Origin: a virus
Length of the DNA stretch: 44,346 nucleotides
UHGV virus genome: UHGV-0027446
Reading direction: 5' to 3' (one strand)
Below, one piece after another: positions 7,201 to 40,123 of the stretch. The notes beneath the pieces were generated by a model. It saw only the letters and a list, made by a program, of their open reading frames with translations, made no database searches and was not told the origin of the DNA. Position 1 is the first letter of the stretch. Every line of letters begins with the position of its first letter. The position numbers and the translations under genes were made by a program.

Positions 7201-7485
7201 TTAACTATAATAGTTCGCTATTAGGTCGTCAACCTGTTTAAACGAACCAACGACAAAAACATTTGCACCACGTTTACGCATACGCTCGTGCTCTCGTAGC
7301 TGGTGCGGGTCAGGCTTCGTGTTTTCGTCTTTCTTAACCTCGACGAACCAGATGATGCCGCCGGGGAGGATTACCAACAGGTCGGGGGCGCCTCCTCTAT
7401 TTTCGTACGACAATTTGCGTACGAGGCCCCCCAGGGCCTCAAATCGGTCTTTTGCGTATTTCTGAACACGGCCCTCTTTAGTCAT
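7201..7485 (-). CDS. VRR-NUC domain nuclease
   Basis: PDLLVILPGGIIWFVEVKK PD-(D/E)XK-type core; probable start at internal ATG (MTKEGRV), track ORF starts at TTG 7500. Confidence 0.6.
   Translation of the reverse strand: MTKEGRVQKYAKDRFEALGGLVRKLSYENRGGAPDLLVILPGGIIWFVEVKKDENTKPDPHQLREHERMRKRGANVFVVGSFKQVDDLIANYYS
7204..7232 (-). promoter_or_regulatory. sigma70-type promoter, family A (TTGACG-N17-TATAGT)
   Basis: Minus-strand reading TTGACG acctaatagcgaactat TATAGT; shares spacer motif with promoters at 11734 and 14400. Confidence 0.45.
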
Positions 7486-7720: not shown

Positions 7721-7848
7721 TCCAGTACCCACAAATAAATTGCTACTAGCATACCCAATACGGCGACCATCATGCCGTATTGACCCTCGTGACAGTAGAC
7801 ACCGGCGGCGAAGCCCGCCAGTACCGCGATAATCAGTTTACTTAGCAT
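7717..7848 (-). CDS. small hydrophobic membrane peptide (43 aa)
   Basis: Hand-translated MLSKLIIAVLAGFAAGVYCHEGQYGMMVAVLGMLVAIYLWVLE; start overlaps last codons of polymerase gene. Confidence 0.25.
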   Translation of the reverse strand: MLSKLIIAVLAGFAAGVYCHEGQYGMMVAVLGMLVAIYLWVLE

Positions 7849-10800
7849 AACGCTTCATCTCCGCGCCTTCCGCTACAAGAGGGAAGCCCTCTGCCCATTC
7901 CGGCAATTCGCACATCAACCGCCCAAGCTCTGCGACATTGTATTCTGGTAAATCTGGCGTCTCGCAGATAATCTCATCGTGAACATGAAGCACAATAGGA
8001 TAGCCGTTTGCCTCTACGTTCAGCAGTGCATTAGCCAGCAAATCACGGCACAGCGCCTGAGTGCAGTTTTCCACCAGTTTACCAGAGTAGGTGTACTGGA
8101 AACCCCACTGCCGTGTTAACTGGTTTTCACCCTGGTACTTGATGCGGACGTTAGTAGACACCTTCCCGTCTTCGTCTGTCTCTTTAGACACGCTTAACCC
8201 GACTCCGGGGTAAGACATAACGCGGCCCGACGGCAGCGTCATGCGCAACCACCAACCAGCGACTTTGTTGCCGTTGCTATCTGTCTCTACGTTGCGCGAA
8301 AATTTAACGCCGCGTGGCCCTGCAGTGAACTCTTTGCCAGGATTACGGATAGCCGCCATAGCCGCATCTTCAATATCCCGCCAGAACGCTACTGTTTCCG
8401 GGTGTGACTCACGCCACATGCGCTTGATAGCGTCGCAGGTACGCCACACTTTCTTATCAAGAATATACGATGGTCGGTCATCCTTTTCACCGGGCCGCGG
8501 AGGTCGCTTGGCTTCCTGAATACGCGCCCATTCATATCCGCGTGCAGTAGCGGCCCATATATGGTCGGGGAAAGTACCGTCCATTGTTTTAGCCATATCA
8601 ACAAGATTTAAGCCGAGGTTTTTAGCAAACTGAACGAAAGCGCCGACGCCGCCTGCGTAGCCGAGGCCCAATTCACAGTTATGCGCCACAAGAAAGCCAG
8701 AGTCTGACGCTATAAGAAAACGGTTACCGTCTTCCACATCAATCAGGTCGTAAACCGGCTCGCAGTAGGTTAATTTCCCGTTCAAGCTCAGCAATGCGGG
8801 CAACGGCTGCATCATATTTTCGTTGAAGCTCGGGTATTTGCCGCCTGTTACGGCAGTTTTCAGAACGGCTGACAAACCGAATGTTTCCAGGTTCGTAGTT
8901 ACCGTCTGTGTCGATTCTGTCCATTTCGAGGTTTGGGTCGTCCCAGCCTTCCAGAGTTTGAACATATCTAAGAAACGACCTTTTATCAGTCCTCCACTGG
9001 TTAAATACCGTGATGCCCCTGGCGCCATAGTTTTTATAGCCTTTGTCATTAGGTTTTGTTGTTCGCGATATCGCCGCGGACAGCCGGTTGAGCAATCGCG
9101 CTCTGTGACTGTCATCTGGCATCGCATCCTCGTAACAGAAATACTGTTTACGATATTTTTTTGTTGCTTCAAGTGCGCAGCGGTTACATTGAGTGGTTTT
9201 ACCTCTTCTAACATTGTCGTACCCGACGCGCCCCGGAATCTCTCCGCAATCACATTGAGCAAGTAGTTGTCTATGACCTTGTCGTTTTGGTAACTCGCGC
9301 AGGATAACCAGGCGTCCATACCTCTCTCCAGGGCGAGGCCCATCATATATTTGTTTGAAACGAGTTGCTTTGCCGCCTTCCAGGAATGCGTCAATATTTT
9401 GTGGTCTTCGGTCATTAGAACCCCGTCCACATTTATCACTGGTTTCCACCCCATAAGGTGCGCGCCTTTTGTATTCACCCATTTTTCACCGTTCCATACT
9501 TTATCTGTTGATGTAACCGCCATAATATCCTTAAATCCACCATCGGTCAAAACTTGGGTATGGCGGTGAAGACAGGCCTTGCCAATCTGGCGCAGGTCAC
9601 TACGGCTTTCGAGAATGTAATCGGGGTCCATTCCGAACATCTTACCCGCAGTTACACAGTAAATATCCAGTCCCGCACGGAAAGTATCGAGAGCGGTTTC
9701 TTCTCCCGCCAGCCATGCCAACCCGCGTCCTTCAACGTTAGAGTAATCGGCGACTACAAACTTATGTCCGGCTTCCGGTATGATGCAGCTACGCACCGTC
9801 GATGCCGTTAGTTTGGCCACATCAAAACGGCGATGCGCACGGCCTTTAAACAACAGGTCGATTCCGTAGGACAATGGGTGTGTTACTCGCCACCAGTCCT
9901 TCTCTGACATCCAGTCATAGCGTACTTTCTTCTTTTTATTCTTCGGGTCGTCGTGATAGTACCCGCGCGCCAGGTTCTGCGGCTGAAAGCCTTTGCCCGC
10001 AAATCGTAATGTACGCTTCGCTCCGCCATACTGGATGCAACCACGACGGCGGTCGTCCGACGAGCGGCCCAACAGCAGCGGGTTATATTTCGTTGACGCG
10101 GTAGACGCGGCTCCGAGGCGCATTTCGATAATCATGCGGGCGTCGTCCGGTAAATCATCATCCGCCAACAAGTCATTCAGCGTTGACTTCTGCGCGTTGT
10201 GGATGCGGTGCGCGGGTGCGAGTTCACGCAGAATCGGCAGAAAGTCTTTACCAGTAAGCGAGCCGCCGTATTTTCGTTGGGCTTCTTCCTGTAACTGCGC
10301 TTTGTGTTTCTCCACGGCTTCAATCGCGGCTTCTGCCAGCGCGACGTCTACCTTAAACCCTCGGTCATTGATTAACTGGTCCAGCTCAAGTACACGGTCC
10401 TCGAACTCTGAGTTACCCCACCGCGGCAGCTTATGGAAGACTTCACGCATCGCAGTGATGTCGCTCACGGCGTACTTGATGAACAGCGCCCACTCGTCCG
10501 GGTGTGTTTCGGCGGTGTAGCGGCGGATTTTGTAGTTCTTCGGCGTAGGTTTAGAAAAACGCTGAATCAGCGCCTTGCCGCGTTTGTCTTTTGCGTTGTC
10601 TGCGGACACGCCCAACACTTCGCACAAAGCATCAAGTGAACCCGGCAGCGCGTGACGAAACGCCCAAATCATCGTATCAATGGTGTTGTTTACCGGAATA
10701 TCAAAACCCCAGCAGTGTTTCATGATGAGCCTGTCGAACATTGAACCGTTGTGCCACACCATCTTGATACGGCTGTTCGGTTTAACCAGACGGCGTAGCG

Positions 10801-10987
10801 CGCGGTGCAAATCGCCAGGCATGTCGCTGCCGTCTGTGCAGTCCCATACCTGTACGGGCTCGTCGTCAAAAGCATAAGTACAGATGAGCACTTCGGTTGA
10901 CGGGTGTTCGGCGTAAGCGTAGGAACCGACTTTCTTTAAATCGACTCCGGAGAATGTTTCAAAGTCTAAGTAGAGTAATTCTGGCAT
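7838..10987 (-). CDS. family-A DNA polymerase with 3'-5' exonuclease domain, interrupted by an intein
   Basis: Exo I motif YLDFETFS; motif A VVADYSNVEGR; motif B split by a 299-codon insertion; likely start at ATG (MPELLYLDFE), track ORF extends to TTG at 11017. Confidence 0.85.
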   Translation of the reverse strand: MPELLYLDFETFSGVDLKKVGSYAYAEHPSTEVLICTYAFDDEPVQVWDCTDGSDMPGDLHRALRRLVKPNSRIKMVWHNGSMFDRLIMKHCWGFDIPVNNTIDTMIWAFRHALPGSLDALCEVLGVSADNAKDKRGKALIQRFSKPTPKNYKIRRYTAETHPDEWALFIKYAVSDITAMREVFHKLPRWGNSEFEDRVLELDQLINDRGFKVDVALAEAAIEAVEKHKAQLQEEAQRKYGGSLTGKDFLPILRELAPAHRIHNAQKSTLNDLLADDDLPDDARMIIEMRLGAASTASTKYNPLLLGRSSDDRRRGCIQYGGAKRTLRFAGKGFQPQNLARGYYHDDPKNKKKKVRYDWMSEKDWWRVTHPLSYGIDLLFKGRAHRRFDVAKLTASTVRSCIIPEAGHKFVVADYSNVEGRGLAWLAGEETALDTFRAGLDIYCVTAGKMFGMDPDYILESRSDLRQIGKACLHRHTQVLTDGGFKDIMAVTSTDKVWNGEKWVNTKGAHLMGWKPVINVDGVLMTEDHKILTHSWKAAKQLVSNKYMMGLALERGMDAWLSCASYQNDKVIDNYLLNVIAERFRGASGTTMLEEVKPLNVTAAHLKQQKNIVNSISVTRMRCQMTVTERDCSTGCPRRYREQQNLMTKAIKTMAPGASRYLTSGGLIKGRFLDMFKLWKAGTTQTSKWTESTQTVTTNLETFGLSAVLKTAVTGGKYPSFNENMMQPLPALLSLNGKLTYCEPVYDLIDVEDGNRFLIASDSGFLVAHNCELGLGYAGGVGAFVQFAKNLGLNLVDMAKTMDGTFPDHIWAATARGYEWARIQEAKRPPRPGEKDDRPSYILDKKVWRTCDAIKRMWRESHPETVAFWRDIEDAAMAAIRNPGKEFTAGPRGVKFSRNVETDSNGNKVAGWWLRMTLPSGRVMSYPGVGLSVSKETDEDGKVSTNVRIKYQGENQLTRQWGFQYTYSGKLVENCTQALCRDLLANALLNVEANGYPIVLHVHDEIICETPDLPEYNVAELGRLMCELPEWAEGFPLVAEGAEMKRYAK
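8678..9574 (-). mobile_element. intein inserted in polymerase motif B
   Basis: Starts CLHRHTQVLTDGG (block A), has LMTEDHKILT (block B), ends YDLIDVEDGNRFLIASDSGFLVAHN with Cys at +1; excision restores RQIGKA-CELGLGYAGG. Confidence 0.7.
8739..9482 (-). CDS. HNH homing endonuclease, encoded in an alternative frame within the intein
   Basis: 247-codon ORF, same strand as polymerase but a different frame; YGRLVIL, QCDCGEIPGRVGYDNVRRGKTTQCNRC, KGYKNYGARGITVFNQW, LEMDRIDTDGNYEPGNIRFVSRSENCRNRR. Confidence 0.55.
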   Translation of the reverse strand: MGEYKRRAPYGVETSDKCGRGSNDRRPQNIDAFLEGGKATRFKQIYDGPRPGERYGRLVILRELPKRQGHRQLLAQCDCGEIPGRVGYDNVRRGKTTQCNRCALEATKKYRKQYFCYEDAMPDDSHRARLLNRLSAAISRTTKPNDKGYKNYGARGITVFNQWRTDKRSFLRYVQTLEGWDDPNLEMDRIDTDGNYEPGNIRFVSRSENCRNRRQIPELQRKYDAAVARIAELEREINLLRAGLRPD

Positions 10988-11007
10988 GGTATTTCGACCC
11001 TTAGTAA

Positions 11008-11027
11008 AAAGGCCCAATGAAGGGCCT
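11008..11027 (-). terminator. intercistronic hairpin / attenuator between SSB-like gene and polymerase gene
   Basis: AAGGCCC-loop-GGGCCTT followed on the minus-strand transcript by UUUUUACU; lies in the 30-nt gap just upstream of the polymerase RBS. Confidence 0.45.
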
Positions 11028-11674: not shown

Positions 11675-11733
11675 CTTGATTTCTCGCTTTTAAGTTTCGT
11701 TTACTCCGGGAAGCTGCCCGGCCAGTGATTAGA

Positions 11734-11762
11734 ACTATAATAGCTAACTATTCAGGTGTCAA
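11734..11762 (-). promoter_or_regulatory. sigma70-type promoter, family A (TTGACA-N17-TATAGT)
   Basis: Minus-strand TTGACA cctgaatagttagctat TATAGT; spacer nearly identical to promoter at 14400. Confidence 0.5.
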
Positions 11763-11766
11763 CACT

Positions 11767-13008
11767 TTATTCTAAATCCTCCTCGGTTGCCTGATTCCAC
11801 TCAGGACGTTTGTCGTCCGCCGTTGCGACGCATGGTGCTCCGGGCTTACGGATAATGAAGTCTTTCAGTTCTTCTTCCGGTATTACTTTAACCGCTTCGG
11901 TCGGTGACATGAGCACTTCTTTAGTCAGCTTGTCGCCGTAGAGTTCTGCTACTTTCTCTGCGTCTTTCCACGCACGATTGCCCATCTTACCTTCTACCAG
12001 CTTGTACCCCGGCACTTTCTTACCAGAATGCAAAGCGGCAGCCATAGCTTTCTCAACCTTGTCTATGTGCTGGCGCAATAGCGGCAACTTCTCATACTCA
12101 GCTACGAGTTGCTCTGGCGTAAGTTCCAGCACAAAGTCGTCTTCCAGTTCTTCTGCCAGTACCGCGTTAACGGTTTTTGTACGCGCGGCGCACTGTTCAG
12201 AGAACCGGCACCACTGGCAACCATCGACCGACGGCCTGAAATCCGATGCTTTCAGGTTCTTCTTACCGCGGAAGTACGCATCAAGGGCTAACAGCGCGCG
12301 TTTCTGTGCGAACTTAGCGAACAGTTCCAGACCTTCAACCGAGATATCCCACTCCGACGCACCTCCGGCATACGGCTGGAAGATTACCAGACGAACCGTT
12401 GTTATGTTATAACGTCTCTTGAGTCGGCGATAAACACCGAGAGCGTAAAGCATAAGCTGCTTGTTTTCCTTCGCTTCGACACGATGCCGTCCTGTTTTCA
12501 GGTCACCAATAATAAGCATGTGCTCGTCGGTGTTAGCCAGTTCCTGCACGGCAACGAGGTCAGCGGTTCCGAACGTCTCGACGCCTTCGTAACCCGGATG
12601 CAGCACCTCAGTAAGATTGACGCGCATCTCGAGCTTGACGTAAGTCGCCACGTCAATAATCGCTTTGCAGTAATCGGTGTACTTTGTACACTGGTCAATC
12701 ATGTCCGCCGTAATCAGTACCGCGCCTTTCATCGGACTGATTAGCGCCTTAATCAGGCCTTTACCCTCGTCCAGCACGTAAGCACCGACTTCCCGCACTA
12801 AAGGCAACGCAGTTCCTTTAATGTACTGATTCAGGTGAATCTCAGATATCGTGTGCATAGCCGTGCCTGATACGGCAGCTTTGCCTGACGTGTTAGGAAT
12901 GTCTTTTTCACAGGCCAGTGATGCGGCGCAACTTAGCCACTTTTTAGCGCCGGACGGCGACAGCAGAGCGTGTACATCATTATTGCCGCCGCGTTCTTTT
13001 AGTTTCAT
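11767..13008 (-). CDS. RecB/Cas4-family PD-(D/E)XK exonuclease
   Basis: GTADLV...IIGDLKTG nuclease core and C-terminal Cys cluster CQWCRFSEQC; ATGA coupling to upstream gene. Confidence 0.6.
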   Translation of the reverse strand: MKLKERGGNNDVHALLSPSGAKKWLSCAASLACEKDIPNTSGKAAVSGTAMHTISEIHLNQYIKGTALPLVREVGAYVLDEGKGLIKALISPMKGAVLITADMIDQCTKYTDYCKAIIDVATYVKLEMRVNLTEVLHPGYEGVETFGTADLVAVQELANTDEHMLIIGDLKTGRHRVEAKENKQLMLYALGVYRRLKRRYNITTVRLVIFQPYAGGASEWDISVEGLELFAKFAQKRALLALDAYFRGKKNLKASDFRPSVDGCQWCRFSEQCAARTKTVNAVLAEELEDDFVLELTPEQLVAEYEKLPLLRQHIDKVEKAMAAALHSGKKVPGYKLVEGKMGNRAWKDAEKVAELYGDKLTKEVLMSPTEAVKVIPEEELKDFIIRKPGAPCVATADDKRPEWNQATEEDLE

Positions 13009-13352
13009 CGTACCCCCGCCAGATATAAGTTTAACGCCTGTAATTGTTCTTCTGTTGGTATGAAAGAATCATCACGATGTAAATCGCTCAACTGCTGCAA
13101 CATTCCAGCGAACTGGCGTCTTGCATCAACAGCAGCCATGTGATGCTTTTCACTTTTATATATTAATGTTTTCGGATAATCCTCAAGCCTACCAGACGAT
13201 TTATTTACTCGGAGCGCACGAGCTTCGTGCGCAATGTGGATGTACTTTTTGCCGTTTTGCAACACGGTAGCGACGCCACTGTTTTTTCTTCGGTCCCCGA
13301 CTGTGTACACTTTGTCGCCTTGACGGAGATTAAGCCACCATTTATCGGTCAT
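13005..13352 (-). CDS. hypothetical protein
   Basis: ORF with GGGAGG SD before internal ATG (MTDKWW); ATGA coupling both sides. Confidence 0.4.
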   Translation of the reverse strand: MTDKWWLNLRQGDKVYTVGDRRKNSGVATVLQNGKKYIHIAHEARALRVNKSSGRLEDYPKTLIYKSEKHHMAAVDARRQFAGMLQQLSDLHRDDSFIPTEEQLQALNLYLAGVR

Positions 13353-13621
13353 ACCCGGACCTCCCACTGGTCGATTAAATGCCGTGTCTGGTGATGGCAG
13401 TGCGTAGCCCAGCTATACATCGACTCGAAGACATAAAAGTCAGGCTTGGCGAAAGTCGTGCGCTTAATCTGCGACAAGTGACGGCCTATATCTTTAGGCC
13501 GCGGTACTTTGCCTAAGTAAGCCATCTCTTCCATCGGGTTAGCACCAGATGGCGCACGTAACAGCCATAGCGCCTCTGTGTCATCCCGCCTGTCTACGGC
13601 GCGGTAGAGTTGATAAATCAT
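13349..13621 (-). CDS. hypothetical protein
   Basis: ORF-track ORF 13349..13648; probable start at internal ATG after GAGGGT. Confidence 0.35.
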   Translation of the reverse strand: MIYQLYRAVDRRDDTEALWLLRAPSGANPMEEMAYLGKVPRPKDIGRHLSQIKRTTFAKPDFYVFESMYSWATHCHHQTRHLIDQWEVRV

Positions 13622-13821
13622 TTCTTTACCCTCACAGAATCCATCCACGCGAAAACGTCATCCATAGAAAAATCACCGTCGAAAACTTTTTGTGTTTTAT
13701 CCGACTTTTGCACATACGTAGGGCGTTTATTATCTACCGCGTGGAAGCATACGAAGTTATCCGTTTCTTCTATAACTCGCCCTGAAATAATAAGACCACT
13801 TTTCTTAGCTAAAATAGCCAT
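13618..13821 (-). CDS. hypothetical protein
   Basis: 67-codon ORF with GAGGGTCGG SD; preceded by GCGGCC-TTAG-GGCCGC hairpin. Confidence 0.35.
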   Translation of the reverse strand: MAILAKKSGLIISGRVIEETDNFVCFHAVDNKRPTYVQKSDKTQKVFDGDFSMDDVFAWMDSVRVKK

Positions 13822-13864
13822 AATTCCGACCCTCAGTTAAAGCGGCCCTAAGGCCGCAAGACAG

Positions 13865-14368
13865 TTATTCTTCTTCGAAATACTTGTTCTTGATTGCCGT
13901 CAGGCGTTCCAGGTATTCGGCCAAGTTTTCGTCTTTAATCGCGGCAATCTTCATCTTTTTACCAGTGAACTCTTCCAGCAGTTCATCAGAATCATCGCAC
14001 GCGGCATCGCTAGGACCTTCGTTAATCGCATCGTCGATAGCCTGAATCTGGTCACGCAGAGACTTATAATCGACCCCTTCTTCCGTTTCCGGCGTCGGTT
14101 CCTCTACTTTAGCTTTACGCGGCTTGCGTTTCGGCTTCTCTTCTTCTTCTGCCGGTTTAGTGTCAACGATGTCTTCACCTTCGATAGGGATTTCTTTCCC
14201 GACGCCAGTACCAGGGTCGACTTCAAGTACCTCTCCCGTAACCGATACGTCCACAAGCATTTCACCTACATGCTCAGTTTGGTGCACGGGGCGTTTTGCG
14301 ATATTCGCGGCAATCAGTTCATGTGCAACTACGAAACGTTCCAGTAATTTTAAGAATTGGTCTAACAT
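13865..14368 (-). CDS. acidic hypothetical protein, first gene of leftward early operon
   Basis: GAGGAGAG SD; highly acidic (E/D-rich) product; directly downstream of promoter 14400..14429. Confidence 0.45.
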   Translation of the reverse strand: MLDQFLKLLERFVVAHELIAANIAKRPVHQTEHVGEMLVDVSVTGEVLEVDPGTGVGKEIPIEGEDIVDTKPAEEEEKPKRKPRKAKVEEPTPETEEGVDYKSLRDQIQAIDDAINEGPSDAACDDSDELLEEFTGKKMKIAAIKDENLAEYLERLTAIKNKYFEEE

Positions 14369-14399
14369 TTGTTTCTCTCCTCTCGTTTGGTATGGGTTA

Positions 14400-14429
14400 A
14401 CTATAATAGCTAACTATTCATTATGTCAA
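14400..14429 (-). promoter_or_regulatory. sigma70-type promoter, family A (TTGACA-N18-TATAGT), leftward
   Basis: Minus-strand TTGACA taatgaatagttagctat TATAGT; divergent from Cro-like gene promoter. Confidence 0.5.
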
Positions 14430-14433
14430 TGGG

Positions 14434-14462
14434 CTTTTCTAAAATAATTAATATGGTACTAT
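14434..14462 (+). promoter_or_regulatory. extended -10 promoter (TGgTACTAT) for Cro-like gene
   Basis: TG at -15/-14 plus TACTAT; weak -35; 30 nt upstream of AGGAG SD. Confidence 0.45.
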
Positions 14463-14493
14463 TCACATATCAACTGACTAAGGAGTAATTGAC

Positions 14494-14709
14494 ATGCAAC
14501 CATCTGAACTAGGTATCCGTGTAGAACAACGCCGTAAAGAACTCGGCATCTCCCAGCGCCGTCTGGCTGTCCTGACCGGGGTTTCCCAGGGCGCAATTAA
14601 CCAGCTGGCTCTCGGTGTAACTCAGGACGTCCGTCCGGCGACGCTGTTTAAACTGGCGGAAGTGCTGCAAGTAGACGCCAAGTGGTTGGTGTTAGGTGAA
14701 GGGGCTTAA
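14494..14709 (+). CDS. HTH XRE-family (Cro-like) transcriptional regulator
   Basis: ELGISQRRLAVLTGVSQGAINQL helix-turn-helix; AAGGAG SD; lone plus-strand gene in divergent promoter region. Confidence 0.7.
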   Translation: MQPSELGIRVEQRRKELGISQRRLAVLTGVSQGAINQLALGVTQDVRPATLFKLAEVLQVDAKWLVLGEGA

Positions 14710-14726
14710 CGCCCCTTTCTTTTTAT
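14700..14726. terminator. rho-independent terminator (AGGGGC-TTAAC-GCCCCT + T-run)
   Basis: Hairpin overlaps Cro-like stop codon, followed by TTTCTTTTTAT. Confidence 0.55.
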
Positions 14727-15023
14727 CTATTCCAAATTCTTAATCGTGTGTTGCACATTCAGGTACTGAATCCAGGCGAAAAACCATACGCTCACCGGAA
14801 AACTAACCGCGGCAGCCGTTCTGAAAACCATGTGGGCGGTACACGCTACAATTTCCTTTAACGTCATATCCAGAACATGGCGCAATTCTGCAACTTCCTC
14901 TAACGCTAGCCTGCAAACAGGCCACCATTGGTGGGCTACACAAGAAACACATGTCAGGTATGACGGGCGGTATCCGGCCCTAACTGCTTTAAACGGGTTA
15001 TCTATAAAATCGTAAATATTCAT
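14727..15023 (-). CDS. hypothetical protein
   Basis: 98-codon ORF; ATG overlaps primase stop (ATGA); SD GAGGAGGA lies within primase C-terminal codons. Confidence 0.4.
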   Translation of the reverse strand: MNIYDFIDNPFKAVRAGYRPSYLTCVSCVAHQWWPVCRLALEEVAELRHVLDMTLKEIVACTAHMVFRTAAAVSFPVSVWFFAWIQYLNVQHTIKNLE

Positions 15024-17281
15024 TCCAAATCCTCCTCTGTCACTGTCAGCATTTCATTCGGTTCGTATATCGTCTTCGGAATCTTGTTGTCGTTTATGCC
15101 CCACGGCAACCGGTATTGCTTAGGGATAGGCCTGTTGTTGTTATCCAGGCCTGAGACGATAACCCCGGCCTCGTGCATCTCTTCCAGTTTCTTTCGAAGG
15201 TCGTTATTAGCGTTAATCGGTACGCCGTAACTATCTTCTTTCGCTGCTTTGACGATAGCCGACATAGAAAACCCCCGCTTGTCGTCGCCCTGCTCCTGCA
15301 ATTTACCCAACGCGTAAATAACCGTAGCTTCTTTGGTGTCCAGTTTCTCGAACTGGACTACCTTCTCTTTAACGGCTTCCTTCTGTTCGTCGGTCATACC
15401 TTCTACTTTCTTCACGAAGACAGAGAATGCGTTGAAGTTAACAAAGACATCAATATGCGGATTTCCTGCGTCAAAATCGCGGACATCATCACTACTGTAC
15501 CCTTCCGGAAGACCCATGAAGTTGTGAGTTGGTTCTTTCTTTTCCGGTGGCTCCGCTATCTGAATCTTTTGTATTACGAACCCTCTGGCTTTCTGCCGTT
15601 CTCCGTTTCGGTTCTTTATGTGATACAGATTTATCTCTAAGTTATTGTCGTTGTCCGGCTTATGCAGGAACATCCCGTTATCGATGGAGTTGTGAAAATC
15701 ACTACCACCCTTCGGCATCATGCCGTTCTCGGATGGTACGGTTTCGTCAATGTTTTTAGTTGGGTGCACCATAGCACCTACCGCGGCATTAAGCGTCGAC
15801 GCTATTTCGTTAAGTGCCTGCGCGGCTTCTTTCATCGAGCGGTTGTCATTCTCATCAAAGCCCGGAATACATGTTTGCAGCGTATCAAAAGTGACTTTAA
15901 CAATTTTCTCTTCCCCGGCAACACGGCGCATCATTCTCACCGCCTGGCGTCGCCATGCTTCGTCGAGTAGGTTACACCCATCTGCAACACAGTCGATAAT
16001 GTGTAAGCGGTCCAGGTTATCGCCAAGAGCAATCTGCAAAGATTTTTTATGTCGTTCGAACGACTGTGCACCTTCACCGGCGAAAATGAACGCATGTCCT
16101 TCCGCGACCTCTGCCCCGCCGAACGCATATCTTTTTTCGGCGGCAATAGCGGCGTCAATCGCCATGCTAAACGTTGACTTACCAGTGTGGGACTTTGCGC
16201 AAATGTAGAATGATTCGTTAGTCTGCATAAGGCCGTCTACGACGGAGTAAGCAGGTTCTTTTTCAACTTCCGGCTCGTCTTCGAGGTCTTCCAGCGTGCA
16301 AGTTACTGGCTCTTCGTTCTCTGTGCGGTGCAATTCCTCAATCTCTTCGTCCGGTAAATCCGGCAGAGCCGCGCGAATGCTGTTAATACTAATAGGTTGC
16401 TTGTCTACGTTAAGCTCATCCGGAAGACCGCACATACGCAGGGCCAAATGTTGCCGGCGATTAAGCTCGGTGCAAGCGCCATTGTTCGTGTGCTGGCACA
16501 CGAAGCGCACTTCTTTACCGTCGAGCATGATGCTGGTGGAGCCTTTGCCCGTGTGCAGATGCTCGTTGGGGCATGGCACTTCATACCCGCGCCCGGAAGA
16601 TAAAGCGTCAAGTCCAAGCTCCGCTTCACAGAAATGTGCGATATCAGCGTTAAGCCCATGCTCATCGGCGGCAAGTGTCTTAGCTTCACGCTTACGCAAC
16701 CCCATCTCTTCGGCTTTCTTGATGTACCGCTCGGCACGGATAACACGCCCTTCTGTAACCGTTATCTTCGACTCTCTATGCGGCAGGTAGATAAGGCGGT
16801 TGCCGTCTTCCGTGCAGTGGTCGCGCAATGCTTCGTCTATTTCTAACTCTGCACAAATAGCACGTTGCACCATCCACGCGTCGTTAGAGTTAAACGGTGT
16901 GCGGGCCGGTACAAGAACGCGGAAAGCGTAATCACCGTTTTTACATGCGTGCTGGTGCGACGCCGTTGTATGCAGGATATTGAAGAACGGCGCATTCTTG
17001 AATTTACGTGTCAGGTCGCGATACTGTGTACGGTTGAGATGGTCGAAGTCGAACTTAACTACACTATCTTCCAGAATCGCGTTCTTACGGCGACCACCAA
17101 CAGGCGCAATTGCTTTCTGCTTAATCTTGGCCGCGTCGTACTCTTCCTTAGTCCACGACGGGTCTACCGACAAACGCTTCGATGTATCGCAGACATACTC
17201 TACGAACTGCTCAAGCGGCATTTCACGCGCTACAGGGTTTTTATCGAATGTGTTACGCAGTGTTGCAAAAACAATATTCAT
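15020..17281 (-). CDS. DNA primase/helicase (primase-type N-terminal domain with zinc-binding Cys/His cluster, P-loop NTPase C-terminal domain)
   Basis: VKFDFDHL acidic motif, CPNEHLHTGKG...CQHTNNGAC, Walker A AKSHTGKST. Confidence 0.65.
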   Translation of the reverse strand: MNIVFATLRNTFDKNPVAREMPLEQFVEYVCDTSKRLSVDPSWTKEEYDAAKIKQKAIAPVGGRRKNAILEDSVVKFDFDHLNRTQYRDLTRKFKNAPFFNILHTTASHQHACKNGDYAFRVLVPARTPFNSNDAWMVQRAICAELEIDEALRDHCTEDGNRLIYLPHRESKITVTEGRVIRAERYIKKAEEMGLRKREAKTLAADEHGLNADIAHFCEAELGLDALSSGRGYEVPCPNEHLHTGKGSTSIMLDGKEVRFVCQHTNNGACTELNRRQHLALRMCGLPDELNVDKQPISINSIRAALPDLPDEEIEELHRTENEEPVTCTLEDLEDEPEVEKEPAYSVVDGLMQTNESFYICAKSHTGKSTFSMAIDAAIAAEKRYAFGGAEVAEGHAFIFAGEGAQSFERHKKSLQIALGDNLDRLHIIDCVADGCNLLDEAWRRQAVRMMRRVAGEEKIVKVTFDTLQTCIPGFDENDNRSMKEAAQALNEIASTLNAAVGAMVHPTKNIDETVPSENGMMPKGGSDFHNSIDNGMFLHKPDNDNNLEINLYHIKNRNGERQKARGFVIQKIQIAEPPEKKEPTHNFMGLPEGYSSDDVRDFDAGNPHIDVFVNFNAFSVFVKKVEGMTDEQKEAVKEKVVQFEKLDTKEATVIYALGKLQEQGDDKRGFSMSAIVKAAKEDSYGVPINANNDLRKKLEEMHEAGVIVSGLDNNNRPIPKQYRLPWGINDNKIPKTIYEPNEMLTVTEEDLE

Positions 17282-17474: not shown

Positions 17475-17687
17475 TTACTTAACGCCCGCGATCCACGCAC
17501 GCTCAGAAGTGTAGAAACGACACTTACTTAACGACTCGATTGGCATCTTAATAATTCGTGTTGTTCCTGAAAAATAATCAGGTTTGCATATTTCTGCATA
17601 GAAACCGCTGTCCGTAATTTCTGACGCAAACTTAAACCGGTATTTAACTTTACCGTTCTCAAAGTAACAACCCATACGTCCAATCAT
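17475..17687 (-). CDS. hypothetical protein
   Basis: 70-codon ORF, ATGA coupled to AlpA-like gene. Confidence 0.4.
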   Translation of the reverse strand: MIGRMGCYFENGKVKYRFKFASEITDSGFYAEICKPDYFSGTTRIIKMPIESLSKCRFYTSERAWIAGVK

Positions 17688-17866
17688 TTAACGTTCTCCT
17701 TAATCCACGCTTCAACTTTATTACGGTCAAATGTTCCCGGTAAACGGCGGCCCATAACCTTAATACAGCAATCCGGGAATTTACCACTGCGCAACCAGTT
17801 ATTAATTGTCTGACGTGTCACCCCGATACGTTCAGCTACTTCATTCTGTGTCATGTAATTCGGCAT
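17684..17866 (-). CDS. AlpA/excisionase-like HTH DNA-binding protein
   Basis: MPNYMTQNEVAERIGVTRQTINNWLRSGKFP; AGGAGAT SD before internal ATG (track ORF extends to 17938). Confidence 0.55.
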   Translation of the reverse strand: MPNYMTQNEVAERIGVTRQTINNWLRSGKFPDCCIKVMGRRLPGTFDRNKVEAWIKENVK

Positions 17867-17907
17867 TTTTACATCTCCTGTTTGTTTGGTGAAAACGAGT
17901 ATAGGAT

Positions 17908-17936
17908 GGCGGGAATGTAAAAGCAACCAAAACAAC
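17908..17936 (-). promoter_or_regulatory. sigma70-type promoter (TTGCTT-N17-TATACT), leftward
   Basis: Read on minus strand immediately upstream of AlpA-like gene. Confidence 0.4.
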
Positions 17937-17973
17937 ACACAAAGTTACTAAGATACAAAAGATGCTACCGGTA

Positions 17974-18002
17974 TTGACTTTTACTAAGAAATATGGTAAG
18001 CT
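17974..18002 (+). promoter_or_regulatory. extended -10 promoter of conserved element copy R1 (TTGACT-N14-TGgTAAGCT)
   Basis: Near-identical promoter at 31328..31356. Confidence 0.45.
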
Positions 18003-18005
18003 CAG

Positions 18006-18215
18006 CCTGAGCTTGTGAAGTATGAACAAGCGACCGCGGCGCGCGGCAGGCGAAACGAGCACGTGTAGCGTGTGGAGTGAGGCTCGCTAGCGCGTTTGGG
18101 AGGCCCAAAGTCTATTGTAATTCCAGCCTAAATATCTAAGTTACTGATTTGCCGTAGGTTTTATCCGCAAGCTCACTCACTCACTCTTGGTGCCTTCGGC
18201 ACCACGTTCGTTTCG
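18006..18215 (+). ncRNA. candidate conserved leader / small RNA, copy R1
   Basis: Begins at predicted TSS with 38 nt identical to 31360..31397, including hairpin GCTTGT-gaagtatga-ACAAGC; ends near GGTGCC-TTCG-GGCACC hairpin. Confidence 0.3.
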
Positions 18216-18280: not shown

Positions 18281-18309
18281 TTGCACACCCCAACATAATA
18301 GGCTACTAT
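18281..18309 (+). promoter_or_regulatory. sigma70-type promoter, family B (TTGCAC-N17-TACTAT)
   Basis: TTGCAC accccaacataataggc TACTAT; near-identical copies at 31233 and 40095 (minus) and 19646 (plus). Confidence 0.5.
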
Positions 18310-18343
18310 TCACTTATCGAAACGAGACAGAGGAGTGAGGGCT

Positions 18344-19645: not shown

Positions 19646-19674
19646 TTGCACGCTGAGCTAGAATAGGCTACTAT
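19646..19674 (+). promoter_or_regulatory. sigma70-type promoter, family B (TTGCAC-N17-TACTAT)
   Basis: TTGCAC gctgagctagaataggc TACTAT, then conserved leader with GAGAGGAGAG SD. Confidence 0.5.
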
Positions 19675-19705
19675 TCATTTACACAAACGAGAGGAGAGAC
19701 AGAAG

Positions 19706-22483: not shown

Positions 22484-22505
22484 ATCTGTTTTCTGCAATG
22501 ACTAG

Positions 22506-22534
22506 TTGACTATTACCTGTGACCCTATTATATT
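22506..22534 (+). promoter_or_regulatory. sigma70-type promoter (TTGACT-N17-TATATT)
   Basis: Near-consensus -35, 17-nt spacer containing ccctattat as in family B. Confidence 0.55.
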
Positions 22535-24175: not shown

Positions 24176-24247
24176 TTGACGTCTGAATAGCCCGCTAGTA
24201 TAGTTAAAACGCTTCATACACTAATTTAACGAACAGAGAGAGCAAAC

Positions 24248-27869: not shown

Positions 27870-29285
27870 TCACTTATTCCACACCAATTTCTCTTGTCCG
27901 CTATCCCATATGCGGGATACACCTTCCTCGGCGTACCATTCCGACTGAGTGAGACCCTCTGGCGCTTTGTTCCATTTTTGCCGTGATTCTGTTTTAGTCG
28001 CATTGTTTACGACGATACGGAAGCCGCATCTCACAGAAGCCTTTTTAAACCCCGCTGATAAGTATGCTTCTCCGGTAAATAAATCCCGGTCAGTGTAGGT
28101 AAAACCGTCGGTGATGCTATAACGGCGTACTGCGTAAGTCCATAGCTTTGACAGCCCTCCGACCACCGAACATGACGTAGCGTACCGCACAAGTTCCCAT
28201 TCGCCTTTTCTACACGTCAGCGTCATTACCGCGACAATCTTCTCTTCATACACAAGGCTGATATACTTCGTCGAGTTACGGAATCCTTGTATGTGGTTCT
28301 CCTCCAGAAAATATTCTGCGCGCAGTTTGTTAATCTCTTTTACATGGCATTTGCGGGCGAAAACGCGCAAAGAAGAGACGCCAACGGAATGGCTGATTAT
28401 TTTCTTTATTATTTCTTTTTTATGCAGCCATAGCTCGTCCCTTATTGACAGGAGTCGGAACCCTCTTGCCTCAACGGCAACTCTTTTCTCCATGTGATAC
28501 TTTCTCCCCTTCCCGGCAGCTTCGCTGTGCCAGTACAGGCCGTTTATTTCTATAGCCAGATTATGTTGTGGTATTAAAATATCTATCTCTCTTGGGTGGA
28601 TAAGACTTCTATCATTCCGACGATATTCCACCCCCATGCTGTCGAGAAATTCACAGACTTCATCCTCCACTTTACTACGCCCAAACGACGCACACCGCGG
28701 GCACCCTCTACCCTGAAAGATGTTACCAAGCGTAGCGGCCCATTCATGGCCTTTTTGACACCTCAGTGCCGACGGCATACGGCAGATATCCCCTGAATAA
28801 GACACCAGTTCAAAACCAGTGCCGCGTAACCTTTCCTCTATTTCGCCGATCTCAAGCCTTTTTCTGTTAGTGCTGCAATTCGGGCAATGACTTTTACCCC
28901 TTAAAACGTCGCTGCCGGTAGCGGACCAGACGAACCCGCATTTACATCTGAACGTTGATTTCCCACTGACAGCACCCGCGTAGCGAACACATTCAACCCC
29001 ATTAGGCCACTCTGCTACTTTCGCCCGTTTTTCCTCCGCATAGCATTGCGGGCAACCATGACCGTTCAGGACGGTATTAGCCTTTGTATCCCACACATGC
29101 CCCCTACGGCAGCGGAATTTAGACTTAAGTTTAGAGTGACCCGCATACTCAATTACGACTATCCCCCGTGATTCTAGTCTCAGGTTTATATCTTCTTCGG
29201 TTAAACGTCTGGACCCCATTAAAATATCCTCCACTTCTTCTTCTAGTATAAAGATTGCGCATATACATGTATCACAGCAAGACAT
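27870..29285 (-). CDS. multi-domain nuclease-like protein: three zinc-ribbon repeats + Vsr/PD-(D/E)XK-like core + C-terminal domain (homing-endonuclease-like)
   Basis: Three repeats of F(R/K)C..GH.W......(L/F).G.GCP.C; REIDILIPQHNLAIEINGLYWHS...ARGFRLLSIRD; alternative start at internal ATG 29219 after GGAGGA. Confidence 0.55.
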   Translation of the reverse strand: MSCCDTCICAIFILEEEVEDILMGSRRLTEEDINLRLESRGIVVIEYAGHSKLKSKFRCRRGHVWDTKANTVLNGHGCPQCYAEEKRAKVAEWPNGVECVRYAGAVSGKSTFRCKCGFVWSATGSDVLRGKSHCPNCSTNRKRLEIGEIEERLRGTGFELVSYSGDICRMPSALRCQKGHEWAATLGNIFQGRGCPRCASFGRSKVEDEVCEFLDSMGVEYRRNDRSLIHPREIDILIPQHNLAIEINGLYWHSEAAGKGRKYHMEKRVAVEARGFRLLSIRDELWLHKKEIIKKIISHSVGVSSLRVFARKCHVKEINKLRAEYFLEENHIQGFRNSTKYISLVYEEKIVAVMTLTCRKGEWELVRYATSCSVVGGLSKLWTYAVRRYSITDGFTYTDRDLFTGEAYLSAGFKKASVRCGFRIVVNNATKTESRQKWNKAPEGLTQSEWYAEEGVSRIWDSGQEKLVWNK

Positions 29286-30865: not shown

Positions 30866-30892
30866 AGGCCCCTTACGGGGCCTTAGTTTTAT
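30866..30892. terminator. bidirectional terminator (AAGGCCCC-TTAC-GGGGCCTT + T-run)
   Basis: Between convergent genes 30400..30861 and 30889..31203. Confidence 0.55.
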
Positions 30893-31203
30893 TTCTTTCC
30901 TAATGCTTTCTTGATTGCTCTGTCGGCCAGACTTAACGGATGGTCTTTATGGCAATTGTCAGAAGATACTACACAAACATCCTCAACGTAATCGCGAAGC
31001 TGGCGAAGAGCTTCAAGTAACTCTGGTGCCGAGGCGATAAGTTCGGCGTCGTGTTTATCATTAATTTCTTCTGCAACTGGAGTTCGGATAGTACAGCCGT
31101 ACATTTTCTTTAATGAGCCTTTCTGAAACACAAACCACTCCTGCTCGCCTTTTTCTTTCTTGAACTCCCACGGACCTTTCGTGCCTTTAAATTCATCTTT
31201 CAC
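30889..31203 (-). CDS. hypothetical protein (opposite-strand insertion)
   Basis: GTG start after GAGGAGGG SD, driven by family-B promoter; GPWEF...LIASAPELLEAL motif. Confidence 0.45.
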   Translation of the reverse strand: MKDEFKGTKGPWEFKKEKGEQEWFVFQKGSLKKMYGCTIRTPVAEEINDKHDAELIASAPELLEALRQLRDYVEDVCVVSSDNCHKDHPLSLADRAIKKALGKK

Positions 31204-31232
31204 TTTATACCCTCCTCGTTTCGATGTAATGA

Positions 31233-31261
31233 ATAGTACCCTATTATGCTGGGGTGTGCAA
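31233..31261 (-). promoter_or_regulatory. sigma70-type promoter, family B (TTGCAC-N17-TACTAT)
   Basis: Minus-strand TTGCAC accccagcataataggg TACTAT. Confidence 0.5.
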
Positions 31262-31327
31262 ACTATTTATTAGCCTATTCCAGTTATTCCGCTCAATTGT
31301 AAATGTTGGAATAAACTATTCGAATAG

Positions 31328-31356
31328 TTGACTTTTCACTGAAAATATGCTAAGCT
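31328..31356 (+). promoter_or_regulatory. extended -10 promoter of conserved element copy R2 (TTGACT-N14-TGcTAAGCT)
   Basis: Same architecture as 17974..18002; -35 overlaps 16-bp palindrome AACTATTCGAATAGTT. Confidence 0.45.
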
Positions 31357-31359
31357 CCA

Positions 31360-31563
31360 CCTGAGCTTGTGAAGTATGAACAAGCGACCGCGGCGCGGGC
31401 AGGTAACGGAGCGGGACGTAAGTCCTGAGTGTAGTTACGCTGACGCGTTCGGAAGGGCCATACTCTATTGCTTGTGTAAAAAGTAACTGGTTTACTGAAA
31501 TTGCGCCGTTTCTATGTTTAAATGATAAGTACTAGCGCCCCGCTTTAAGGCGGGGCTTTACTT
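31360..31563 (+). ncRNA. candidate conserved leader / small RNA, copy R2 (upstream of spanin genes)
   Basis: 38 nt identical to R1 at predicted TSS, ~70% identity beyond; ends in GCCCCGC-TTTAAG-GCGGGGC hairpin + TTTACTT. Confidence 0.3.
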
Positions 31564-38476: not shown

Positions 38477-38706
38477 CACTCATCTATATTACTCCTGTAT
38501 TCCCGTAACTTCTCCAGACTTTCAATTGCCTCCGCTAAGTCTGTTACAGTGTCCTTGTGACCACGCAAGCCCATGCACAATAGCTTCTTTAACGCATGCT
38601 GTAGCGCCGGGTCGCGGATATCGAAGGCCCGTAGCACATCGTAAACGTCTACGGTCATAGTGGTGCCGTGAGTATTTGTCATTGTGCGGTTGTATTTTGA
38701 AGTCAT
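38476..38706 (-). CDS. hypothetical protein (cassette gene 3)
   Basis: VYDVLRAF...ALQHALKKLLCMGLRGHKD motif; ATGA coupled to phosphoesterase gene. Confidence 0.45.
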   Translation of the reverse strand: MTSKYNRTMTNTHGTTMTVDVYDVLRAFDIRDPALQHALKKLLCMGLRGHKDTVTDLAEAIESLEKLREYRSNIDE

Positions 38707-39872: not shown

Positions 39873-40064
39873 CTACTTCTCTTTCACGTTCGAGTTGCAA
39901 GCCCATATTAAAATAAATAACCACGGCAGCAGAACCCAACCAAGAAACAGGTTAGCCATGAATATAGCTAACTTCGCTTTATGGTTACGGAAGTACGCAA
40001 CCAGGAAAGGCGCGAAATAAGCGAGCAGTGCAAACAGAATTAAGGAAACTGGTAAACTGGACAT
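39873..40064 (-). CDS. superinfection-immunity (Imm)-like small membrane protein
   Basis: Two TM segments, LLAYFAPFLVAYFRNHKAKLAIFMANLFLGWVLLPWLFILIWA; internal ATG after AAGGGG. Confidence 0.5.
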   Translation of the reverse strand: MSSLPVSLILFALLAYFAPFLVAYFRNHKAKLAIFMANLFLGWVLLPWLFILIWACNSNVKEK

Positions 40065-40094
40065 TTTAAACCCCTTCATTGTTGGTGTAAGTGA

Positions 40095-40123
40095 ATAGTA
40101 CCCTATTATATTGGGGTACGCAA
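40095..40123 (-). promoter_or_regulatory. sigma70-type promoter, family B (TTGCGT-N17-TACTAT)
   Basis: Minus-strand TTGCGT accccaatataataggg TACTAT driving the cassette. Confidence 0.5.

Follow-up and report, generated by a model that had tools for sequence, protein, structure and literature searches.

A 14-bp dyad on eleven promoters of a virulent Kagunavirus genome is the probable operator of its 434 Cro-type protein

The 44,346-nucleotide (nt) DNA of UHGV virus genome UHGV-0027446 (the whole stretch analyzed, called the window below) carries a lone rightward gene, cro, whose upstream region (bp 14369–14493) holds two divergent promoters that each overlap a copy of the same inverted repeat. 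This 14-bp dyad, AATAG-N4-CTATT (arms of 5 + 5 bp and a 4-bp center), lies on eleven promoters distributed over the genome, and it is probably the operator of the 71-amino acid 434 Cro-type protein that cro encodes, which would make it the basis of a repressor regulon, autoregulated and extending over the genome, in a virulent phage; judged from sequence comparisons, this reading has a probability of roughly 0.68. The analysis described here establishes the sites with their excess over expectation, placement in promoters, and conservation; it also establishes the protein's family and ties its recognition-helix clade to this type of operator.

When all 5-N(0-10)-5 dyads in the window were counted without bias, AATAG-N4-CTATT was the most over-represented (7 found and 0.04 expected), and the next most over-represented was only a terminator hairpin family. 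A search with the arms alone (AATAGNNNNCTATT) over the whole window finds these 7 perfect copies and a total of 12 with no more than one mismatch, where 1.0 is expected. Eleven of the twelve lie on sigma70-type promoters, each with either a ribosome-binding site and start codon or an RNA downstream; the twelfth, at 1930, is within the tail-fiber gene and fits the chance expectation of about one. The dyad-bearing promoters are on both strands and serve cro, replication, the rightward small-gene/lysis genes, accessory cassettes, and the terminase/capsid blocks (Table 1). Two of the cassettes so driven lie on the minus strand within the structural module, and one of them begins with a superinfection-immunity gene. 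Two promoters in the window lack the dyad, that of the leftward HTH_17/helicase-primase operon (TTGCTT-N17-TATACT, about 17927–17899, minus strand) and a plus-strand TTGACT-N17-TAAGCT promoter at 17975.

A sequence-only reading of this DNA had noticed three leftward TTGAC(A/G)-N17/18-TATAGT promoters, with a shared spacer core containing inverted AATAG/CTATT arms, and took them for a simple local control of early transcription. The promoters are where it placed them (7232–7204, 11762–11734, and 14429–14400), and so is the core; a 20-mer, AATAGTTAGCTATTATAGTT, is identical at 11733–11752 and 14399–14418 (no such match arose in 100 shuffles), and the third copy (7203–7222) has 3 differences, all in the dyad center (TTAG to CGAA) and none in the arms. 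The conserved unit is AATAG-N4-CTATT and not the full 20-nt spacer, the trailing TATAGT being the -10 hexamer. The pattern TTGAC-N17-19-TATAGT has 4 matches in the window (0.04 expected), the fourth of which is on the plus strand (24176–24204) and had been overlooked. The restriction to three leftward early promoters did not survive, as the dyad is present on 11 promoters and both strands.

The dyad occurs in three registers relative to the promoter hexamers. In type A promoters it falls within the spacer and reaches the -10 (about -25 to -12); in type B promoters (TTGC(A/G)(C/T)-N17-TACTAT) the -10 hexamer is inside its right half (about -19 to -6); and in type C promoters (TTGACT-N17-TATATT or TAAGCT) it lies over the -35 (about -40 to -27). 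Since the register differs in these three ways, the dyad is an independent element and not a part of the promoter itself. The operator centers, at about -12.5, -18.5, and -33.5, are all within the core polymerase footprint. Perfect operators are found on three replication promoters, two rightward small-gene/lysis promoters, and two promoters of minus-strand accessory cassettes, and the one-mismatch operators belong to cro and to three promoters that precede late blocks (operators at 22501, 24186, and 31323); this division is kept in phage Schulenburg and partly in phage Jersey.

The cro upstream region has one operator per promoter. O1 lies in the leftward promoter P_L, whose transcription unit extends from gene 13865–14368 onward to 11767, and O2 lies in the cro promoter; the two are 45 bp apart center to center, and 43, 55, or 64 bp apart in relatives. 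Looping between O1 and O2 was considered and dropped, as the helical phase is not constant over these four spacings. Dyad position 5 holds the sole mismatch of O2 (AATAT for AATAG); this base is the T of the TG in the extended -10, so that the cro promoter trades one operator base for promoter function. The -35 of this promoter is weak (CTTTTC at 14434–14439); in relatives the TG of its extended -10 is retained and the base that follows is G, A, or C. A ribosome-binding site, AAGGAG, is at 14480–14485, upstream of the ATG at 14494. Near its other end cro converges with the end of the leftward helicase-primase operon (14698–14727/14727–15023). An intrinsic terminator is annotated in Schulenburg at the site equivalent to the cro terminator, and since the T-run of the latter serves only the plus direction, leftward transcripts may read antisense through cro.

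The Cro protein belongs to Pfam family HTH_3 (PF01381; 48.2 bits against a cut-off of 23, E = 1.1e-12, residues 11–65). Its best sequence matches in the PDB are the 434 repressor N-terminal domain, 434 Cro, and P22 C2, and its AlphaFold2 model (mean predicted local distance difference test score, pLDDT, 82) has five helices at residues 5–17, 21–28, 32–39, 48–57, and 63–66. The top Foldseek match of this model in the PDB is 434 Cro (2cro; template-modeling, or TM, score 0.71–0.76, 40% identity), which has the same five-helix fold, followed by 434 repressor, SinR, and P22 C2; the model was built from a single sequence, and the Foldseek E-values are only ~1e-3. The earlier description of the product as an XRE/Cro-like helix-turn-helix (HTH) protein is thus borne out by the Pfam match. 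The rest of that description also holds: cro is the only plus-strand gene between ~5046 and 17938, it is transcribed divergently from P_L behind an extended -10 (TGnTACTAT, 14454–14462), and neither a CI-like repressor nor an integrase is found in the annotation of relatives or among the scanned open reading frames (ORFs) of the window. The gene divergent from cro (13865–14368) has no HTH or S24 domain.

The phage itself is evidently virulent. Positions 13000–16000 match 444 phage records by megablast, the best being Golestan, Schulenburg, and other Kagunavirus phages (Guernseyvirinae) at ~91% identity, and on that basis the window (44.3 kb) is essentially a near-complete, circularly permuted genome of a virulent Kagunavirus siphovirus of E. 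coli. Annotated relatives have a leftward replication block of helicase, VRR-NUC nuclease, DNA polymerase, single-stranded DNA-binding protein, PD-(D/E)XK nuclease, and small genes, then one rightward “Cro / transcriptional repressor” gene, and then more leftward genes (helicase-primase and HTH protein). Integrase, CI, and RNA polymerase genes are not annotated in the close relatives Schulenburg and Golestan, and none of these three turned up when ten large or unplaced window ORFs were scanned against Pfam; the largest ORFs encode tail fiber, tailspike, DNA polymerase, helicase-primase, and tape measure. The papers on phages fBC-Eco01 (PMC9825357) and Golestan likewise report no lysogeny module such as an integrase.

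Alignment of 46 distinct cro-upstream sequences (36 of Kagunavirus type and 10 from Jerseyvirus) shows the arms of O1 to be invariant in the 36 Kagunavirus-type sequences, with CTAA, CTAG, CGAA, TGAA, or CAAA as the center; O2 is likewise fixed, and differences, among them a 1-nt indel, are seen in the spacer from O1 to the -35. Circularity was avoided by picking promoters from 38 Kagunavirus loci by their hexamers only. All 48 distinct TTGAC[AG]-N17/18-TATAGT promoters so obtained carry the dyad, with 9 or 10 of the 10 arm bases; these type A dyads have ~2 bits of information in the arms and <1 bit in the center, which takes 22 forms. In type B promoters picked in the same way, the left arm, which is in neither hexamer, is nearly invariant. 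AATAG-N4-CTATT thus has the architecture of an operator, 14 bp long with two inverted ~5-bp arms around a 4-bp center that tolerates change. The positions of the sites are also kept, with 10 sites in Schulenburg and 7 (TAATAG-N4-CTATTA) in Salmonella phage Jersey, 4 of which match the positions of sigma70 promoters in the GenBank annotation of Jersey. The Cornellvirus phage Shemara has no AATAG-N4-CTATT in its genome, and its corresponding promoters instead carry ATTAG-N4-(G/C)TA(A/T)T in the three registers described above; a degenerate dyad scan with AWTAS-N4-STAWT finds 5 sites there (0.7 expected), all in promoters, and a repeated-word (PHIRE-like) search of the same genome returned only low-complexity repeats in coding sequence. 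The predicted recognition helices are SQGAINQL in Kagunavirus, SQSLITHL in Jerseyvirus, and TQSAISHL in Cornellvirus. Klebsiella phage 37P2 represents a fourth Guernseyvirinae lineage (2.6-kb piece); its Cro homolog is 40% identical with helix LSQSALSF, and a different palindrome, (G)ATAC-TATA-GTAT(T), covers the TATAGT -10 of the cro promoter there (about 1100–1170). This palindrome may be a further half-site variant (AATAC).

The identity of the binding protein is best addressed by temperate relatives, which were sought by a profile search of contigs with a 4-sequence alignment. In seven independent temperate-type lineages the CI N-terminal domain is 38–43% identical to the window Cro and has a helix of the form [ST]QG.I.Q, and in six of these seven, perfect A(A/T)TAG-N4-CTA(A/T)T dyads lie no more than ~100 bp ahead of the gene (contigs L056; L057/L069, Candidatus Glomeribacter; L060/L061; L062; L064; and L065, Corticimicrobacter). 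They sit in the divergent CI/Cro intergenic region, often as three tandem sites, and recur at a second promoter downstream. By contrast, none of 18 relatives with other recognition helices, which were recovered through the C-terminal helix or by tblastn, carries such a dyad upstream; the Fisher probability for 6/7 against 0/18, as calculated here, is ~4e-5. Several of the 18 have 5-N4-5 dyads of their own, such as the annotated operators of Pseudomonas phage D3 (ATGGG-N4-CCCAT) and the GTAGG-N4-CCTAC dyads of an Stx2c phage and YeP1. Cross-talk with the enterobacterial prophage repressors of this kind (Stx phages, YeP1) was considered and set aside, as their helices differ, their dyads are of the GTAGG type, and no evidence of cross-immunity was found.

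The same temperate loci also bear on the differences among the Guernseyvirinae. AATAG and ATTAG half-sites are both present within single temperate immunity regions, so position 2 is A or T for the family as a whole, and the apparent difference in specificity of Cornellvirus disappears; the family-level operator is best written as A(A/T)TAG-N4-CTA(A/T)T. The Cro proteins of temperate loci have helices TQGAISQV (Kagunavirus type) and TQSAISHV (Jersey/Cornell type), and the occurrence of both types beside the same operator family explains how two helices can go with one operator. That the Cro-like protein binds the palindrome, as the sequence-only reading suggested, fits all of this comparative evidence.

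The motif is not new to the literature. The fBC-Eco01 paper (PMC9825357) lists it as seven “phage RNA polymerase promoters” identified by PHIRE, their consensus being tgAATAGTa-ccTATTat-T, and the accessible text of the Golestan paper reports seven PHIRE promoters without giving their sequences. A promoter for a phage or phage-modified RNA polymerase, as it is labeled in such PHIRE-based genome papers, is nonetheless a very improbable explanation. PHIRE finds repeated words only; every site is within a canonical -35/N17-18/-10 sigma70 arrangement, and no RNA polymerase is found in the annotation of relatives or among the scanned window ORFs. The dyad does not keep a fixed position but takes three registers relative to the hexamers, which a polymerase element would not tolerate. 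The label therefore fails on the lack of a polymerase gene together with sigma70 promoters in three registers, and reading the motif as an operator would correct the annotation. Binding of the dyad by some other factor, with Cro regulating elsewhere or only its own region, is a more serious competitor, if still a rather unlikely one. The obvious phage candidate is the HTH_17 protein (17684–17938), whose gene heads a leftward operon with a dyad-free promoter; an HTH gene, probably this one, is one of only four genes classed as early in phage K1B4 (PMC12645636), and the imperfect covariation of recognition helix and half-site within the subfamily leaves room for such a factor. HTH_17 homologs are present in Jersey (Jerseyvirus) and in contig L041, but none is detectable in the complete Cornellvirus genome, where the promoter dyads persist. 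A symmetric 5-N4-5 site suits HTH_3 dimers of the 434/P22/D3 type, and in six unrelated temperate lineages homologous HTH_3 repressors are accompanied by the dyad family, which relatives with other helices lack. A host protein is an unlikely binder because Jerseyvirus and Cornellvirus share Salmonella as host while their dyads differ. Among host sites, the consensus sequences of ArgR, SlyA, IHF, and LexA give no convincing match.

Two further possibilities accept Cro as the binding protein and differ in what it does. If the palindrome mattered only on the three leftward early promoters, Cro would be a local early switch at 14369–14493; the three type A promoters concerned are indeed the most alike, two of them being identical over 20 nt, but eight more promoter dyads on both strands, including those of the structural module and of cro itself, contradict this, and these further dyads are positionally conserved in Schulenburg and Jersey, so that so narrow a role is improbable. 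Alternatively, Cro might activate some promoters (the weak type B or the late type C) and act as a dual early-off/late-on switch in the manner of phi29 p4 or of CI at P_RM. In favor of this, the type B and C hexamers are poorer than those of type A, and the promoters of late blocks have a different register; on the other hand, judged by geometry, no operator is centered where activators usually sit (about -41.5 or beyond), and no promoter has an overlong MerR-type spacer. Activation seems less probable still than the local switch.

Several points weigh against the view that Cro is a genome-wide repressor. The Cornellvirus sites are asymmetric, and covariation of helix and half-site within the subfamily is not clean, as the Kagunavirus and Jerseyvirus helices differ and their dyad is the same. 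Temperate lineage L070 has the right helix and no clear dyad in the 331 bp available. A repressor on nearly all promoters, late ones included, has no obvious logic in a lytic cycle, and the sole grounds for graded affinity are one-mismatch differences between operators. The literature searched yielded no experiment on binding or expression for any Guernseyvirinae Cro, and the only Kagunavirus time course (K1B4) is too poorly synchronized for a test of early shut-off (PMC12645636).

If the dyad is the Cro operator, regulation could proceed as follows. Transcription of cro would start at its extended -10 promoter and terminate immediately after the gene, so that the product accumulates. Cro, probably as a dimer formed on the DNA, would bind one operator per promoter, and because the operators are inside the core polymerase footprint, such binding should repress by blocking access of polymerase; single operators occupied in this way would affect almost every phage promoter. 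The cro -10 lies in a slightly weakened operator, which would give negative autoregulation. The distinction between perfect and one-mismatch operators suggests graded repression, in which rising Cro would shut off early and accessory transcription first and late transcription least. Both the repression and its early-before-late order are suggested by geometry, and affinity grades and a temporal role for Cro are to be understood in the same conditional sense.

Among known systems, Cro and its dyad most likely resemble an operator-repressor pair of the 434/P22/D3 kind. Operators of the 434/P22 type are 14 bp long with ~5-bp arms and an uncontacted 4-bp center, and the 434 operator reads ACAAG/T-N4-...TTGT. 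The window protein resembles 434 Cro and repressor in size and fold (71 amino acids, 36–40% identity, five-helix HTH_3 fold), and the site resembles theirs in its 14-bp length, ~5-bp arms ending in G...C, variable 4-bp center, and overlap with the promoter core; half-site positions 4–5 are A-G in both. The half-site here is, however, AATAG and not ACAAG/T, and the window phage has no CI partner, no tripartite OR/OL array, and no lysogeny; its eleven single operators are scattered over a virulent genome, whereas 434 has two operator clusters. It does not have a lambdoid immunity switch, as there is no divergent CI with a C-terminal domain, no set of three adjacent operators, and no lysogeny module. 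The temperate contigs (L056 and others) have the identical operator family, with the -10 overlapping the right arm in the same promoter-operator module, but their CI proteins are ~225–230 amino acids long with a LexA-like C-terminal domain (L056, L060, L061, and L065; shorter in others), and a divergent Cro and, where resolved, three tandem operators make theirs a true lysis/lysogeny switch. The literature search returned no experimental study of these A(A/T)TAG immunity regions. Among named phages, D3 stands nearest to the temperate CI proteins (its own shares 38.7% identity with that of L056); it likewise has three annotated 14-bp 5-N4-5 operators between divergent cI and cro, but its recognition helix is DQTSISN, its half-site is different, and it is temperate. 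Dispersed operators are known in temperate phages, namely the “stoperators” bound by mycobacteriophage L5 gp71, the P1 C1 sites, and the conserved inverted repeats of the phiC31 repressor. There, too, one repressor has many sites across the genome, at or downstream of promoters, but those systems maintain lysogeny and use other protein families and site architectures, whereas the sites in the window are strictly promoter-core dyads in a virulent phage.

A broader evolutionary interpretation is possible, though doubtful at present: the Guernseyvirinae, a subfamily of siphoviruses taken to be strictly virulent, may have kept the DNA-binding half of a temperate immunity system and copied its PL/PR-type operator-promoter module onto almost every transcription unit, so that one protein could silence nearly the whole genome. 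Were that true, the only escapees would be the HTH_17/primase promoter and one copy of a structured RNA, and near-total silencing could serve one or more ends: to exclude superinfecting relatives by homoimmunity in a phage that forms no lysogens, to hold transcription in a reversible stand-by (a carrier or pseudolysogenic state), or to compensate dosage as genome copies titrate the repressor. Why a lytic phage should place nearly all of its promoters under one repressor is the question that the operator reading raises. The literature searched holds no description of a dispersed-operator regulon in a virulent phage of this group and no study of Kagunavirus or Jerseyvirus gene regulation, and the BASEL paper has nothing on regulation. 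Phages of both genera are widely isolated in work on therapy and biocontrol, and their use as small synthetic-biology chassis has been proposed. If Cro does bind the dyad, they would have a compact, testable regulon of 11 sites under one 71-amino acid protein, with three promoter-operator geometries. These phages should then be blocked by Cro provided in trans, defined operons should lose their control when their operators are mutated, and compact repressible parts could be made from the promoter-operator modules.

Table 1. Features of the cro region and promoters with the AATAG-N4-CTATT dyad in the window
Feature	Position	Strand	Description
cro gene	14494..14709	+	71-amino acid Cro-like HTH protein; predicted recognition helix S31-Q-G-A-I-N-Q-L38
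cro promoter (type B)	14454..14462	+	Extended -10 TGgTACTAT; TG 14454-14455, TACTAT 14457-14462
cro intrinsic terminator	14698..14727	+	Hairpin GAAGGGGC-TTAA-GCCCCTT(T), then T-run; overlaps stop codon
P_L, type A promoter	14400..14429	-	TTGACA 14429..14424, 18-nt spacer, TATAGT 14405..14400; 11/12 consensus matches
Operator O1	14405..14418	.	AATAGCTAACTATT; perfect dyad; about -25 to -12 of P_L; one base in common with -10
Operator O2	14450..14463	.	AATATGGTACTATT; 9/10 arm bases; right arm contains cro -10; type B
Type A promoter	11734..11762	-	TTGACA-N17-TATAGT; perfect dyad 11739-11752; drives single-stranded DNA-binding protein and DNA polymerase operon
Type A promoter	7204..7232	-	TTGACG-N17-TATAGT; perfect dyad 7209-7222 (center CGAA); drives helicase operon
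Type A promoter	24176..24204	+	TTGACG-N17-TATAGT; dyad 24186-24199 AATAGCCCGCTAGT, one mismatch; precedes gene 24248 and terminase genes
Type B promoter	18281..18310	+	TTGCAC-N17-TACTAT; perfect dyad 18297-18310; drives rightward small genes
Type B promoter	19646..19675	+	TTGCAC-N17-TACTAT; perfect dyad 19662-19675; drives rightward small genes and (by synteny) lysis genes
Type B promoter	31232..31261	-	TTGCAC-N17-TACTAT; perfect dyad 31232-31245; drives gene 30889..31203
Type B promoter	40094..40123	-	TTGCGT-N17-TACTAT; perfect dyad 40094-40107; drives 39873..40079 and phosphoesterase gene
Type C promoter	22501..22534	+	TTGACT-N17-TATATT; dyad 22501-22514 ACTAGTTGACTATT, one mismatch, over -35; also in Schulenburg and Jersey
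Type C promoter	31323..31356	+	TTGACT-N17-TAAGCT; dyad 31323-31336 AATAGTTGACTTTT, one mismatch, over -35

The unit driven by the type C promoter at 31323–31356 opens with a ~200-nt structured RNA, which the spanin, scaffold, and capsid genes follow. This RNA has a paralog in the window; the two ~200-nt units (17975–18215 and 31328–31560, both plus strand) each run from a TTGACT-N17-TAAGCT promoter to an intrinsic terminator, and their 5′ parts are near-identical (CTGAGCTTGTGAAGTATGAACAAGCGACCGCGGCGCG...). An operator covers the -35 of the 31328 copy and none is on the 17975 copy. In an alignment of 13 Kagunavirus copies, a 5′ hairpin is conserved, an inner hairpin varies in sequence but keeps its pairing, and a long helix has compensatory pairs (for example, UA/CG/AU at columns 38–98 and AU/GC/UA at columns 48–87). 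The RNA matches no Rfam family, and blastn finds no copy in Jersey or Shemara; it is a candidate for a new phage small RNA or leader family.

A leader motif, AAACGAG(A/G), which runs into the Shine-Dalgarno sequence, is found at 14381, 18320, 19685, 31214, and other sites, among them positions just downstream of several operator promoters. The first pattern tried for this motif gave no enrichment; AAACGAGR is modestly enriched in the window (9 copies and 3.7 expected), with 4 copies in operator-promoter leaders, and it may be a shared 5′ untranslated region that was inherited with the promoter module.

Among the genes served by these promoters, 39873–40079 (minus strand) encodes a T4 Imm-like superinfection-immunity protein (Pfam Imm_superinfect, 1e-12), and together with a calcineurin-like phosphoesterase gene (38703–39833, minus strand) it forms a minus-strand cassette inside the tail module. 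The HTH_17 gene at the head of the helicase-primase operon (17684–17938, minus strand; Pfam HTH_17) likely has its true start at an ATG near 17866.

The DNA polymerase ORF (7838–11017, minus strand) encodes 1059 amino acids, compared with 741 in Schulenburg. It contains an in-frame insertion of about 299 amino acids (8678–9574) with the hallmarks of an intein, which starts at ...GKA|CLHRHTQVLTDGG and ends at ...GFLVAHN|CELGLGY (Cys1, His-Asn, and +1 Cys); a second insertion of 23 amino acids is near residue 360. Between the portal and head-morphogenesis genes lies a 471-amino acid ORF (27870–29285, minus strand) with treble-clef zinc-finger (DUF4379) and Vsr/restriction endonuclease-like domains, whose product is probably a homing endonuclease; a “Hef-like homing endonuclease” is found nearby in Jersey, and Schulenburg has none at this position. 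Finally, a GC-rich hairpin family, AAGGCCC(C)-N4-6-(G)GGGCCTT, is present in five copies (4888, 11009, 27846, 30865, and 38452) at gene-block boundaries, with three copies in Jersey and three in Shemara; at least two of the window copies have an A-run before and a T-run after the hairpin, and members of the family may be bidirectional terminators.

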